A DNA stretch of 64,000 bases. Source: Escherichia phage UPEC01. Below are positions 56,567 to 64,000 of this stretch, in pieces. The notes below the pieces were generated by a model. That model was not told the DNA's origin. It saw only the letters and a list, made by a program, of their open reading frames with translations, and searched no databases. The stretch is from sequence record MW233709; one strand, given 5' to 3'. The first letter of the stretch is position 1; each line of letters opens with the position of its first letter. The position numbers and the translations under genes were made by a program.

Positions 56567-56640
56567 GGCCCTGTAGCTCAATTGGTTAGAGCATCCGGCT
56601 CATAACTGGCAGGTTTCCGGTTCAAGTCCGGATGGGGCCA
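56567..56640 (+). tRNA. tRNA with CAU anticodon (Met or lysidine-type Ile)
   Basis: Cloverleaf by hand: acceptor GGCCCTG/TGGGGCC, D-arm GCTC-AATTGGTTA-GAGC, anticodon loop CTCATAA (one U-C mismatch in stem), T-arm TCCGG-TTCAAGT-CCGGA; T4 itself carries a CAU tRNA-Ile. Confidence 0.8.
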
Positions 56641-56642
56641 CC

Positions 56643-56719
56643 CGGGGTGTAGCTCAATTGTATAGAGCAACGGTCTTCTAAACCGTAGGTTGTGGGTTAG
56701 AATCCCACCACCCCGACCA
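56643..56719 (+). tRNA. tRNA-Arg (anticodon UCU), CCA encoded
   Basis: Acceptor CGGGGTG/CACCCCG, D-arm GCTC...GAGC, anticodon stem ACGGT/ACCGT with loop CTTCTAA, T-arm GTGGG-TTAGAAT-CCCAC, then A-CCA; T4 encodes tRNA-Arg(UCU). Confidence 0.85.
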
Positions 56720-59717: not shown

Positions 59718-59749
59718 GTGCTTTAATGGGAACATGATAGTATGTTCCC
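59718..59749 (+). promoter_or_regulatory. MotA-box middle promoter with -10 enclosed by inverted repeat GGGAACAT/ATGTTCCC
   Basis: TGCTTTA 59720-59726, 11-nt spacer, TAGTAT; 8-bp perfect inverted repeat with 6-nt loop; precedes ATG 59786. Confidence 0.45.
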
Positions 59750-60978: not shown

Positions 60979-61312
60979 ACCAGAAAAATTTGTATACGCA
61001 GACAAGATTGATAAAGACCTTATGCCTCCATTTGGAGCTTTGTCCATGTGCATCGTTGGGGTTATAATGATGGTGCTTTGTGGGGATATGAATATCATTA
61101 GTGTTGGAGTCGCCTGGTCACTAATAATTGCAGCACCTTTTATTACAGTCCTGAGCATGATATTGATAAATGTGTGGCATCAAAATCATATGAATAAAGG
61201 ATATCGTGGGCGAGTTAAAGAGTGGGAACAAAAATGCGTTTCCCTGCAAGAAGAGCACAAAATTAAATGTGCCGAAGAATTTATTAAGGAGGTTCGTAAT
61301 GGAACGGCCTAG
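60953..61312 (+). CDS. small membrane protein
   Basis: 119 aa from ATG 60953; two hydrophobic helices (ALSMCIVGVIMMVLCG, VAWSLIIAAPFITVLSMILINVW). Confidence 0.5.
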   Translation: MRTLYLPSKPEKFVYADKIDKDLMPPFGALSMCIVGVIMMVLCGDMNIISVGVAWSLIIAAPFITVLSMILINVWHQNHMNKGYRGRVKEWEQKCVSLQEEHKIKCAEEFIKEVRNGTA

Positions 61313-61652
61313 TCTTGCATCACATGTTTATCAATTGGCTGAATATGATATTGGTGCCAATTTATTATTAGGGATTGTCACCGCCATGCTTGGTGGTTTG
61401 GTTGGTCTGGTAATGACCACGGTTATGGCTGCAATCGAGGGAGTCATGCCCATTGAGATGGGTTTCTTTATGATAATCGCTCCGGCTGTTGTGTCTTATT
61501 TTATCCCTGTTGTGTATGATATCTGTCACACAAATGCAGTGAATGCTCCTAGTCGGAAGAGATATGCTTCAGCAATGGCTGAGTATAATAAGTTCCTGAA
61601 CAAAACAAAACGTAATGAACTTGAAACCTTTATTAAGGAATGTAAATCATGA
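61299..61652 (+). CDS. small membrane protein
   Basis: 117 aa from ATG 61299 (AAGGAGG RBS); hydrophobic helices (LLLGIVTAMLGGLVGLVMTTVMAAI, FFMIIAPAVVSYFIPVVY). Confidence 0.5.
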   Translation: MERPSLASHVYQLAEYDIGANLLLGIVTAMLGGLVGLVMTTVMAAIEGVMPIEMGFFMIIAPAVVSYFIPVVYDICHTNAVNAPSRKRYASAMAEYNKFLNKTKRNELETFIKECKS

Positions 61653-61939
61653 ATAAAATTGAAATTGCTATCCCCAAGTATTATGATGAGAAATCTGCAG
61701 AAAAAGCTATCTATTCTCTTCTAAATAAGACCTCTGAAATTGAAAAACACTGTGAAGAAATCGCAGATGAATATGGTATCGAATTCAGCACTGGTGATTA
61801 CGGCACCGGCCGTACATATCACCCAGTCGGTTATGAATGTTCCGAATGGTTCGCTCACCATATTGAAAACAACGGCGGACAAGTTGAAAACGGCATTGTT
61901 ACTGTTGGTGCCTGGGTTTCCTCTTCTGAGGTGTGCTAA
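61649..61939 (+). CDS. WVSSSxEC-family small protein 1
   Basis: 96 aa ending ...GAWVSSSEVC; first of four tandem paralogs. Confidence 0.55.
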   Translation: MNKIEIAIPKYYDEKSAEKAIYSLLNKTSEIEKHCEEIADEYGIEFSTGDYGTGRTYHPVGYECSEWFAHHIENNGGQVENGIVTVGAWVSSSEVC

Positions 61940-61940
61940 T

Positions 61941-62222
61941 ATGATGAATGATTACCGTAAAAATAAAGAACTGGCTAACGCAGTAAATGACATCCATAAA
62001 GCTATTCGTCGTGCTGAGGAAATTGCAAACAAATATGAGACTCATTTTAATATATACCCTGCTCGCGGTATGGGCGGTGACTATTATTCTCCTGGCGCCC
62101 TGAAAGCTGACCTTGCTCATTGGGAAGAACATGGTCATCCTGAATGGGCTATTGTTAATACTCATGACTATACAACTGACCTGGAAAAAGGCGGTTGGGT
62201 GTCCTCCTCTTCTGAATGTTAA
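61941..62222 (+). CDS. WVSSSxEC-family small protein 2
   Basis: 93 aa from ATG 61941, ending ...GGWVSSSSEC. Confidence 0.55.
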   Translation: MMNDYRKNKELANAVNDIHKAIRRAEEIANKYETHFNIYPARGMGGDYYSPGALKADLAHWEEHGHPEWAIVNTHDYTTDLEKGGWVSSSSEC

Positions 62223-62231
62223 GGAACTATT

Positions 62232-62429
62232 ATGTCTCGTGAACTAGATTGTGCAATCCGTACTGCCGCGGCAGCTATTGAAAACGTTATCCAGATTTGC
62301 AAAGAAGAACGCGAAGAAGCTGATATCTACATTGATGGTGTTCGTGACTTAGAACGACATATCACGCTTTATAACGGTTGTATTACTATTAGTGGTACCT
62401 CTTGGGTATCATCCTCTTACGAATGCTAA
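62232..62429 (+). CDS. WVSSSxEC-family small protein 3
   Basis: 65 aa ending ...TSWVSSSYEC. Confidence 0.55.
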   Translation: MSRELDCAIRTAAAAIENVIQICKEEREEADIYIDGVRDLERHITLYNGCITISGTSWVSSSYEC

Positions 62430-62438
62430 GGTGATAAA

Positions 62439-62663
62439 ATGTCCAATATTAATGAATTAGAAAAAGCTTCCCTTGAACTGGCTGCACTGTATAAGAAAGT
62501 AAAAGATATGGCTTCTGCTCAAGATTTTGGTGTCGAGCTCGATGATTATGACGGCGAAGTCCGTCTTGAAGACTGGTTGAACAGCTCTTGTTATGGTGAA
62601 GAAGCTGGCCGTACCTTCGTTGCTCGTGCCGATGGTAAAATCTGGTATCCGAGCAGCTGCTAA
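62439..62663 (+). CDS. WVSSSxEC-family small protein 4 (divergent)
   Basis: 74 aa ending ...KIWYPSSC. Confidence 0.5.
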   Translation: MSNINELEKASLELAALYKKVKDMASAQDFGVELDDYDGEVRLEDWLNSSCYGEEAGRTFVARADGKIWYPSSC

Positions 62664-62693
62664 AATTATCACAAGGATGTGATAGGAGGACTT

Positions 62694-63023
62694 ATGCACA
62701 GAGATTCAGTATTTAAATATCTTTTAAAAACAGATAAAGAATTTTATATGGATGGACAAGCATTCTTGTTCGTTCGCGGTAAGCGTGAAATGTTTTATAA
62801 ATGCGACCTCTCCATGCATCATCACATGTACCATACCCATGGCGAGTCCATACTAGGGTTCTCTGGTGATGAGACTAAACATATAGCTATGTATTATGAC
62901 CATTTCAAGCTCAATGATTGTGGTGATAATGCTTTGGTCTGGAATCCATCTTGGTGTCGGTGGGATACAATAGACAACAATAAATTATTTTTAGAATATT
63001 GCAGAAGTAGTATACAACTCTAG
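62694..63023 (+). CDS. hypothetical His/Cys-rich protein
   Basis: 109 aa from ATG 62694 (TAGGAGG RBS); MHHHMYHTH and several Cys suggest metal binding. Confidence 0.5.
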   Translation: MHRDSVFKYLLKTDKEFYMDGQAFLFVRGKREMFYKCDLSMHHHMYHTHGESILGFSGDETKHIAMYYDHFKLNDCGDNALVWNPSWCRWDTIDNNKLFLEYCRSSIQL

Positions 63024-63087
63024 AAAATCGTGTTACTATTCTCTTATCAACTGATGACAATCACGTTATCAGAACAGGAGAATAAAA

Positions 63088-63288
63088 ATGTCTATCGCAA
63101 ACGAATTAATCAAAGTTCTGAACGAAGCCAAAGCCAACCAACTGGAGGTTAATCTCCAGGAAGTTTCAGATGGCATTAAAGTAACCATCAGCGGCGATGG
63201 CGTTCCAGGCACTACAGAGGTTTACGATTCTTTGGAAGAAGTGGTTTCTTGCATTAAAAGAGCCGTTTACTTATATGGTATAATTTGA
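63088..63288 (+). CDS. hypothetical protein
   Basis: 66-aa ORF with AGGAG RBS. Confidence 0.45.
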   Translation: MSIANELIKVLNEAKANQLEVNLQEVSDGIKVTISGDGVPGTTEVYDSLEEVVSCIKRAVYLYGII

Positions 63289-63298
63289 GGAAAATATT

Positions 63299-63466
63299 AT
63301 GTATAATGTTCTTATTGTTTTTGTCACTCATCCGCAAGGTGGAGTAAGACAGAATACTTCTCAAGTGGTTCAATTTTCTTCACTAGAGGCCGCCAATCTT
63401 GCTGCCTCACGAATTGAAGCGAAAAAATCGGCACTTGGAAAATATGAAGTAACTCGTCTTTACTAA
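63299..63466 (+). CDS. hypothetical small protein (55 aa)
   Basis: ATG 63299 with GAGGAAAATATT spacing identical to the next gene; below track cutoff. Confidence 0.35.
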   Translation: MYNVLIVFVTHPQGGVRQNTSQVVQFSSLEAANLAASRIEAKKSALGKYEVTRLY

Positions 63467-63479
63467 TGAGGAAAATATT

Positions 63480-64000
63480 ATGATGTTAGTTATTGGCTCT
63501 CGCGCATTGCATAACGCCGGTCTGATTGAAAGTAAGAAAATTGAAAACTCTGATTGGGACTTTATAGCAGACCAAGGTTCCTGGAACAACTTTAAAACCC
63601 AGATGATGGGGCAGCATGTTCCTGTGGATAACCCAGATGTGCAAGCTTTTAAGTGTATGCACAACGGTAAAGAAACCTATTTTGAAGCATACATCGTCAG
63701 AGCCCTGACAAGTGTTCGTGAGCTGACTGATGAGCTACAAGAGGAAGATTTTACTTCCAGTTATCGTCTGCTCAAATATGCGAAGGCGAATATTCAGAAA
63801 GACCGTCTATCTGGTTTTTACTGGGCGACTCCTGATATTTGTCTGGCAATTAAACTGTCTCATCGTTACCTGAAGAACAATCCATTCTTCCTGAAGACCA
63901 TGAGTCATATTAATTACCTTCGTAATAAGGGTGTTGTTCTTAATGATGAACTGCAGAAAATCATGCTGCAACGCCAGGCAGAAACATTGTCATATAGCCA
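63480..64000 (+). CDS. hypothetical protein, 3'-partial (runs off window end)
   Basis: Open frame from ATG 63480 (GAGGAAA RBS) to the window end, at least 173 aa. Confidence 0.5.
   Translation, partial: MMLVIGSRALHNAGLIESKKIENSDWDFIADQGSWNNFKTQMMGQHVPVDNPDVQAFKCMHNGKETYFEAYIVRALTSVRELTDELQEEDFTSSYRLLKYAKANIQKDRLSGFYWATPDICLAIKLSHRYLKNNPFFLKTMSHINYLRNKGVVLNDELQKIMLQRQAETLSYS

Follow-up and report, generated by a model that had tools for sequence, protein, structure and literature searches.

A family of small phage proteins with a cysteine-terminated tail and its linkage to a DUF7277/DUF7275 gene

Four tail-bearing paralogues in phage UPEC01

We analyzed a window of 64,000 nucleotides (nt) from the T4-like Escherichia phage UPEC01 (sequence record MW233709), in which four adjacent open reading frames (ORFs), labeled O1 to O4, encode small proteins that share a serine-rich C-terminal tail ending in cysteine. 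Here we describe this protein family and its linkage to a downstream gene for a candidate enzyme with DUF7277 and DUF7275 domains. As reported in a first-pass annotation of the DNA, the four ORFs follow one another, encode proteins of 96, 93, 65 and 74 amino acids and are tightly packed. They are on the plus strand, with intergenic gaps of 1 to 9 nt. O1 (61649–61939) ends in GAWVSSSEVC, the tail WVSSSEVC corresponding to residues 89–96 (nt 61913–61936). O2 (61941–62222) ends in GGWVSSSSEC, with the tail WVSSSSEC at residues 86–93, and O3 (62232–62429) ends in TSWVSSSYEC, with the tail WVSSSYEC at residues 58–65. O4 (62439–62663) ends in KIWYPSSC and holds the motif twice, as the terminal tail WYPSSC (residues 69–74) and as a second, internal copy, DWLNSSC-YGE, at residues 45–54 (nt 62571–62600). 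A Shine-Dalgarno-like AAGGAA, GAGGTG or AAGGTG stands 6 to 8 nt upstream of the ATG in each gene, and the O1 start codon overlaps the e.3 stop codon (ATGA). In the program-made ORF list O2 begins further upstream, with a TTG at 61740; annotated relatives use the ATG at 61941.

The region from 61000 to 63500 is 96–97% identical to Escherichia phages TH22 and TH57 and 92–95% identical to ECML-359, EAWsc9, SP18 and VR7; the source of the window is a member of the genus Gaprivervirus (VR7/SP18 group). According to the VR7 annotation, the equivalent region is flanked by the tRNA cluster and the lysozyme gene e and follows right behind e.4 and e.3. Synteny therefore places the array in the e.3–e.2 interval of the T4 e–tRNA accessory region. 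In T4 itself e.3 adjoins e.2 directly, with none of the array or candidate enzyme genes and no match to the family profile described below in this interval.

The tail was defined as W-x-[S/P/A]-S-[S/N]-(x0-3)-C-COOH, with Trp six to nine residues before the end, Ser at W+3 and Cys as the last residue, and it is present in all four window proteins. Six-frame translation of the window gave 587 ORFs of at least 30 amino acids, 21 of which end in Cys, and the tail occurs only in O1–O4; from amino-acid frequencies, approximately 0.001 such tails are expected in the window by chance. The four tails found against 0.001 expected are more than chance would give, and thus speak against the coincidence that the first-pass annotation had allowed for. 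A profile hidden Markov model (HMM) seeded with the four proteins settled at 49 members, distributed over 15 annotated phage loci, and 48 of these members end in Cys. The single exception is the N-terminal half of a frameshifted gene of phage RB69. In that record (locus L002, 3001–3307) the O1 orthologue is split into ORF139c and ORF138c, which reflects either a sequencing error or a pseudogene; the gene is intact in another Mosigvirus contig (L024).

Conservation is concentrated in the tail. Pairwise identity among O1–O4 is low (17–27%), and only O1 and O2 align over their full length (BLASTP E = 2e-4 over 91 columns), the remaining pairs aligning chiefly at the tail. The initiator Met, the Trp, one Ser and the terminal Cys are invariant in an alignment of 45 sequences, and a second Ser is conserved in more than 90%; the other columns average 25% identity. 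Among the 212 unique members used for tail statistics, for which the selecting regular expression itself partly dictated the positions of W, S and C, 156 have the 8-residue tail W-h-S-S-S-x-x-C and 45 the 6-residue tail W-x-[P/S]-S-S-C, a 9-residue class being rare. The terminal Cys is the sole Cys in 70 of 193 short members, O2 included, and thus does not serve merely to complete an intramolecular disulfide or zinc site. Members span 65 to 170 amino acids and are acidic: their median isoelectric point is 4.4, and the window proteins carry net charges between −5 and −10. Longer members of 139–172 amino acids were also seen upstream of the candidate enzyme gene in loci from the IMG/VR virus database (L049, L054, L057, L070, L071, L080 and L086). 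These carry the same tail (DWDSSSMYC, AWCSSSMSC, NSDWNSSRC) behind extra N-terminal domains, and some of these members fall in phrog_23943; the N-terminal extensions of the long members (140–207 amino acids) gave no informative domain and no Pfam match.

O1, O2 and O4 match phrog_899 of the PHROG catalogue (E = 1.3e-21, 8.9e-20 and 1.2e-9), and O3 matches phrog_4882 (E = 2.4e-36) as well as the family HMM (E = 7e-16). The family is catalogued only under these two entries, both labeled "unknown function". Searches of Pfam, NCBIfam and PADLOC with O1–O4 gave no match better than E = 0.1, in agreement with the earlier remark that the motif was not recognised as a described family. Word-indexed protein searches with alignment A1 and with O1 alone recovered close relatives only, and the 45-sequence alignment reached 73 proteins, all unnamed or "hypothetical"; named relatives in other searches were phage proteins throughout. 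A HMMER scan of 1.84 billion cluster representatives produced only 14 matches, indicating that the tail family is small. Two of these were long repeat proteins, and the one inspected (P0093, a metagenomic protein of 1430 amino acids) was rejected as a short-motif coincidence, in which "SCYGExDG" of O4 matches 11 SprB-type repeats. Full-text literature searches found no paper on the small proteins, the motif, the PHROGs, the DUFs or the linkage.

We compared the window genes with their orthologues in VR7, EAWsc9 and five IMG/VR relatives by the Nei-Gojobori method, with synonymous divergence (dS) of up to 1.2. The ratio of nonsynonymous to synonymous divergence (dN/dS) is 0.04–0.30 overall with one value of 0.54, and by gene it is 0.06–0.17 for O1, 0.17–0.54 for O2, 0–0.06 for O3 and 0.04–0.13 for O4. 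The genes are therefore under purifying selection, and these ratios, together with the ribosome-binding sites, show that the ORFs are coding. The first-pass annotation had described the paralogues as fast-diverging, which does not hold: dN/dS is low, and phmmer comparisons resolve the family into subtypes whose orthologues are found in several genera. Orthologues of each paralogue type occur in Gaprivervirus, Dhakavirus, Mosigvirus and Karamvirus, in Klebsiella, Edwardsiella, Yersinia and Aeromonas phages and in Phapecoctavirus. O1-type genes are found in RB69, in phages of Klebsiella, Edwardsiella, Citrobacter, Enterobacter, Yersinia and Aeromonas and in Phapecoctavirus, and O4-type genes in most of the same phages; tblastn detected the O1 type in 395 phage records (40–100% identity) and the O4 type in 245. 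Because each type has orthologues across genera, the duplications must be old, predating these genera, and the copies have been maintained. VR7 has a fifth subtype between its O3 and O4 orthologues (VR7ORF139c; L001 5448–5675; 75 amino acids, ending in FWYNSSMSC). This subtype is also present in many relatives and is missing from the window, where O3 and O4 are 9 nt apart. Together, these sequence comparisons are best explained if O1–O4 are expressed, selectively maintained paralogues representing four of five ancient subtypes in a family that is confined to phages.

Alignments, the HMM and structural models agree with the proposal that the genes are paralogues forming one family, in which the terminal Cys is invariant and the helical N-terminal part varies. 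The AlphaFold2 model of O4, built on a 43-sequence alignment of the O4 subtype, was confident, with a predicted local distance difference test (pLDDT) value of 84.7. The model contains a helix (residues 2–27), a β-hairpin (30–45) and short strands near residues 60–62 and 68–69; the block with Trp69 is confidently placed, and the last four residues are of lower confidence (pLDDT 63). O1, modeled from a mixed-subtype alignment, gave a low-confidence structure (pLDDT 63.7) with a long helix at residues 14–42 followed by short strands, and was left out of the fold search for that reason. Foldseek matches were all non-significant: against the PDB, the anti-defence proteins Tad2 and AcrIIA4 appeared only at E = 1.8–3.8 with template modeling (TM) scores of about 0.34, and frataxin/CyaY at E of about 4. 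A search of BFVD returned only members of the same family. Among known folds, the UBC (E2)/RWD-like α+β fold was weighed as one of the nearest comparisons; membership would call for significant superposition of the structures and, in the case of E2 enzymes, an HPN motif and an active-site Cys loop. By eye, the N-termini show no obvious capsid-targeting sequence of the T4 internal-protein type, which is cleaved at L/I-x-E; no formal search was made.

Linkage to the DUF7277/DUF7275 gene

In every annotated locus retrieved, a gene comes after the small genes that encodes a protein of 300–320 amino acids matching DUF7277 in its N-terminal part, DUF7275 in its C-terminal part, and phrog_2141. The window holds the 5' part of this gene at 63480–64000 on the plus strand, comprising the first 173 codons (MMLVIGSRAL...SDWDFI) before the reading frame runs past the window end. 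It starts 817 nt beyond the O4 stop codon.

A profile of 12 partner proteins identified 80 IMG/VR loci, down to 38% identity and including jumbo-phage contigs of more than 350 kb, and the partner ORF was intact in 79. One to five or more tail ORFs lie within 3.5 kb upstream of the partner and on the same strand in 74–75 of the 79 loci; neither the downstream side nor the opposite strand carries any. In this set, a median of 346 nt separates the partner gene from the last small gene. After near-identical partners had been collapsed, tail ORFs were present upstream in 49 of 50 clusters (similarity ratio ≥0.85) and in 21 of 22 looser clusters (≥0.6). Over all loci, which comprise 6021 ORFs with 426 ending in Cys, every one of the 260 tail ORFs is on the partner's strand. 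The association was equally strict from the other direction. A profile of the O4 subtype found 24 loci, each with the partner gene downstream. We also searched IMG/VR with a DNA pattern for the tail, TGGGTNTCNTCNTC-N7-TGYTAA, that is blind to the partner. This pattern matched 30 contigs, 27 with genuine family genes and 3 by chance without an ORF, and the partner gene was downstream in all 24 assessable contigs, including two contigs new to the analysis. The linkage is directional and reciprocal.

Linked loci include those of jumbo phages, T4-like phages of Acinetobacter and Aeromonas, and Phapecoctavirus. The module lies beside nrdD, not e.3, in the Acinetobacter and Aeromonas T4-likes and beside a Ser/Thr phosphatase gene in Phapecoctavirus; the small genes and the partner gene move as a unit. 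The array in UPEC01 is accordingly the upstream half of a conserved module, and not the free-standing set of host-takeover genes that had been suggested. Because the tail genes are almost always just upstream of the partner gene, the two gene sets probably work together, and we consider it very likely that they are functionally coupled.

The partner gene is carried by 731 phage records, spread over several families, among about 50,700 sequenced phage genomes. These include T4-likes of Escherichia, Klebsiella, Enterobacter, Aeromonas and Acinetobacter as well as jumbo, Pseudomonas and Gram-positive phages. In 185,579 bacterial and archaeal species genomes it was found only on four contigs of metagenome-assembled genomes. 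Three of the four also carry tail ORFs upstream, so we suspect that these are phage contigs in bacterial bins, and a cellular origin of the gene was rejected on these grounds. Small ORFs precede the partner gene in Bacillus phage G (gp204; L121 3202–3555), ending in EETSSSW, and in Brevibacillus phage Sundance (gp088; L123 3156–3437), ending in ...EEEYSSSYYEEEEYSSSYYEED; both proteins are helical and acidic and lack a terminal Cys. An aromatic residue with a serine triplet at an acidic C-terminus therefore recurs beside this gene, the terminal Cys being specific to the Gram-negative clade.

The linkage bears on the proposal that the small proteins act independently, as host-takeover or anti-defence effectors that each bind a host or defence protein, and that proximity to the partner gene reflects nothing but a shared accessory region. 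Their small size and acidity would suit such a role, as would the location of the array in a variable interval that lacks it in T4. Copy number ranges from one to five or more per phage, and the gene content between array and partner varies, with a fifth paralogue in VR7 and extra ORFs in the window. Yet the linkage holds among phage groups that are not related and at varying sites in the genome, the small genes being upstream and co-oriented every time. Strong purifying selection and old orthologous subtypes also differ from arms-race divergence, the fold search gave no match to known anti-defence proteins (Tad2 and AcrIIA4 at E > 1), and the proposal leaves the invariant terminal Cys without a reason. 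We therefore regard independent effectors as an unlikely account of the array, while the data are compatible with the module as a whole acting in host takeover or anti-defence.

Three further plus-strand ORFs, all without the tail, separate the array from the partner gene in the window. The first (62694–63023; 109 amino acids) matches phrog_9796 and contains a run rich in His (HHHMYHTH) and, internally, the tail-like sequence VWNPSWC; it gives no match to the family HMM, and it is present in EAWsc9 and absent from VR7. The second (63088–63288) encodes 66 amino acids. The third (63299–63466; 55 amino acids) matches phrog_20278 and also precedes the partner gene in VR7. Upstream of the array, a candidate site resembling a MotA-type middle promoter (TGCTTCA-N12-TATAAT) lies at 61565–61589 on the plus strand, 84 nt before the O1 start. 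The window has 10 matches to the pattern TGCTTYA-N11-13-TANNNT, 8 of them on the plus strand, where 1.7 would be expected; another example is at 59719–59743. The site before O1 is kept only in EAWsc9 among 15 sources (the window and 14 loci), and it was dropped as evidence on the timing of expression. A sigma-70 promoter scan of the region gave nothing above shuffled expectation, and terminator-like matches were about two standard deviations over it, none positioned to bound the array. Adjacent tRNA-Met(CAT) and tRNA-Arg(TCT) genes are found at 56567–56719 on the plus strand, approximately 5 kb upstream of the array.

The partner protein

The partner protein is about 310 amino acids long, and the full-length VR7 orthologue matches PF23942 (E = 4e-26) and PF23940 (E = 1.4e-73). 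All 79 homologues start with h-h-[IV]-G-S-x-A followed by D-x-D. Nucleotidyltransferases of the Pol-β type carry the signature hG[GS]-x(9-13)-Dh[DE]h near the N-terminus. The partner has a "GS ... DxD" signature of this type, with a spacing read as about 10–18 residues, some values exceeding the classical 9–13, and three GenBank records label homologues "nucleotidyltransferase". Twenty-one residues are invariant across homologues from Gram-negative and Gram-positive phages, among them G6, S7, D25, D27, K125, H128, K139, H194, D195, H198, E240, E241, E248 and R249, a set typical of an active site. Cys272 is invariant in an alignment of 48 partners, nearly all of them linked to tail genes; it is retained in phages G and Sundance and replaced by Ile, within a K-T-I-T motif, in the homologues from actinobacterial and Vibrio phages. 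The partner looks like a metal-dependent enzyme with a nucleotidyltransferase-like N-terminus.

Pfam and PHROG scans of the module neighbours returned DUF7277/DUF7275, an HNH endonuclease-like PHROG match and otherwise only uncharacterised families. The gene often has genes for tRNAs, RNA ligase or poly(A) polymerase in its vicinity. Such neighbours would suit an effector with an RNA or tRNA target, and the partner could be a host-toxic, nucleotidyltransferase-like protein following the logic of MenT and AbiEii. The small proteins would then be its inhibitors or timers, with the tail inserted into the active site, where its terminal Cys would bind the catalytic metal in the manner of the "cysteine switch" known from metalloprotease pro-domains. 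The layout recalls type II and type IV toxin-antitoxin systems, with small genes first and the larger gene second and co-oriented. In MenAT and AbiE, too, small upstream genes precede a nucleotidyltransferase-like protein of about 300 amino acids, often near tRNA or RNA-repair genes. The invariant His, Asp and Glu residues, the near-invariant Cys272, and the sole Cys of many small proteins would also fit a switch of this kind. However, neither the 48 partner homologues nor the small proteins matched DUF1814/PF08843 (the AbiEii family), AbiEi/COG5340/MenA or any other toxin-antitoxin or defence family in Pfam and PADLOC. A number of divergent, separately conserved paralogues as high as five or more is unusual for an antitoxin; the module provides one to five or more partner genes with a terminal-Cys tail and resides in lytic phages, to which addiction logic does not apply; and one clade has the enzyme without tail genes. 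A toxin-regulator pair is accordingly improbable, on a par with independent effectors.

The terminal Cys could also serve a metal or redox function, with the small proteins forming oligomers through their N-terminal helices and the cysteines jointly binding a metal or Fe-S center or acting as a redox thiol. Each protein has a long amphipathic helix and a lone invariant Cys on a tail whose last residues model at low confidence. The Aeromonas phage modules lie among the redox genes nrdD, nrdC.2 and nrdH, and frataxin/CyaY is among the weak Foldseek matches. Those structural matches are all non-significant, however, and such an assembly would leave the invariant Trp, the Ser-Ser pair and the linkage to the partner unexplained. 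The analogues in Gram-positive phages, moreover, retain the serine triplet without the Cys. We consider this explanation quite improbable.

A possible role for the tail

We favor the view that the tail-bearing paralogues engage the partner enzyme through their invariant tail, and we give this reading as a whole an even chance of being correct. Each small protein would consist of an N-terminal amphipathic helix, a small β-sheet and the C-terminal tail, with the last strand anchored in the fold by the Trp and with the terminal Cys and the serine run before it protruding. The tail would be the element by which each protein engages the enzyme, and the odds that it is a contact or modification site appear about balanced. 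It could be covalently modified, most simply by O-nucleotidylylation or phosphorylation of Ser or by a reaction of the terminal Cys; for a nucleotidyltransferase-like enzyme, the simplest option would be transfer to the hydroxyl groups of the serines. Alternatively, the tail may plug the enzyme active site and regulate it, and the terminal Cys may act as a metal ligand in such a plug or as a nucleophile. Through its divergent N-terminal part, each paralogue would have a target or role of its own. Covalent modification as such we consider less likely than not. A previously unrecognised, phage-wide system of tail modification or tagging, in which the enzyme covalently modifies the aromatic-Ser-Ser-Ser(-x-x-Cys) tails of small acidic effectors and the divergent bodies steer them to different host targets, is a more tentative extension that we think is possible at best. 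From genomic context we infer the function of the module, and with it the physical or enzymatic coupling, the residue acted on and any host-takeover or anti-defence role.

There are precedents for protein nucleotidylylation by Pol-β-type enzymes: GlnD acts on PII and MNT on HEPN toxins, the acceptor being a Tyr in a folded loop. The module resembles these pairs in that a "GS ... DxD" protein is encoded beside small proteins with a conserved, hydroxyl-rich site that could be an acceptor. It differs in showing no sequence or profile similarity to them, in the C-terminal Ser/Cys tail, in having several paralogous partners and in being restricted to phages.

The Ser/Cys tail also invites comparison with peptides that are made on ribosomes and modified after translation (RiPPs), a class that includes lanthipeptides, peptides with S-[(Z)-2-aminovinyl]-cysteine (AviCys) and lasso peptides phosphorylated on a C-terminal Ser. 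The small proteins could be RiPP-like precursors in which serines are activated and eliminated and the terminal Cys adds to the product or is decarboxylated, as in lanthionine or AviCys formation, or from which the tail is released as a modified peptide. Like RiPP clusters, the module has multiple short, co-oriented genes with a shared Ser/Cys C-terminal "core" directly upstream of an uncharacterised candidate for the modifying enzyme. The commonest tail has Ser at −3, −4 and −5 from the C-terminal Cys and resembles the S/T-x-x-C termini that form AviCys. In contrast to RiPP precursors, the proteins are larger and acidic, and at 65–170 amino acids with a confidently predicted folded domain they are unlike leader peptides; the C-terminus is conserved, and the variable part is the N-terminal "leader". 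The 6-residue tails lack the S-x-x-C spacing. Pfam scans of the neighbours revealed none of the class-defining enzymes (LanB/M/KC/L, LanD, YcaO or radical SAM), and no protease or exporter domain was seen among the neighbours scanned. These differences make RiPP-like precursors a rather remote prospect.

Several observations weigh against engagement of the enzyme through the tail, or against parts of that proposal. The Ser-to-Cys spacing varies from 0 to 3 residues, which is awkward for one fixed ring-forming chemistry, and three unrelated ORFs intervene between array and partner gene in the window. One partner clade (L059, L060, L069 and L095) has no tail ORFs, and in phages of actinobacteria (Streptomyces and Gordonia) and of Vibrio the distant DUF7275 homologues have at their flanks small proteins of another family, with the ending EVxPxxKTITxY (L120 4630–5322; L122 4600–5360; L124 4608–4973; L125 3306–3602). 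The enzyme can therefore exist without tail partners. Its assignment as a nucleotidyltransferase is putative and unproven, resting on a short signature and third-party annotations. Searches of PDB sequences (phmmer and profile), Pfam (48 homologues, E up to 5), NCBIfam and PADLOC returned nothing beyond DUF7277/DUF7275, and hhalign comparisons with manually entered sequences of the aminoglycoside nucleotidyltransferases AadA and KNTase gave no match. Finally, E69 is invariant in 12 full-length forms, and its region, the candidate position of a third catalytic carboxylate, is deleted in short homologues.

Both components of the module were previously no more than catalogue entries in PHROG and as Pfam DUFs. 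The window proteins match their entries at E values of 1e-9 to 1e-36 and the partner at 1e-73, with one tail family split over several PHROGs (phrog_899, phrog_4882 and phrog_23943, beside phrog_2141 and DUF7277+DUF7275 for the partner). These catalogues assign no function, and neither the motif with its terminal Cys nor the linkage appears in them; the linkage is the main new result here. Because the features of RiPP and MenT/AbiE systems that we tested are lacking and there is no similarity to known anti-defence proteins, we place the module, whose function is read from genomic context only, outside the known kinds of system.

In phages of Gram-negative hosts, the enzyme is almost always preceded by tail-bearing proteins. 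The invariant terminal Cys and serine run, tied to a candidate enzyme, offer experiments a clear and inexpensive point of entry. Should the tail be modified, the module would represent a new type of phage-encoded post-translational chemistry, and if it is a regulatory plug, a new way to control a phage effector. With either outcome, a substantial set of unannotated genes in T4-like phages of therapeutic relevance would gain a function.

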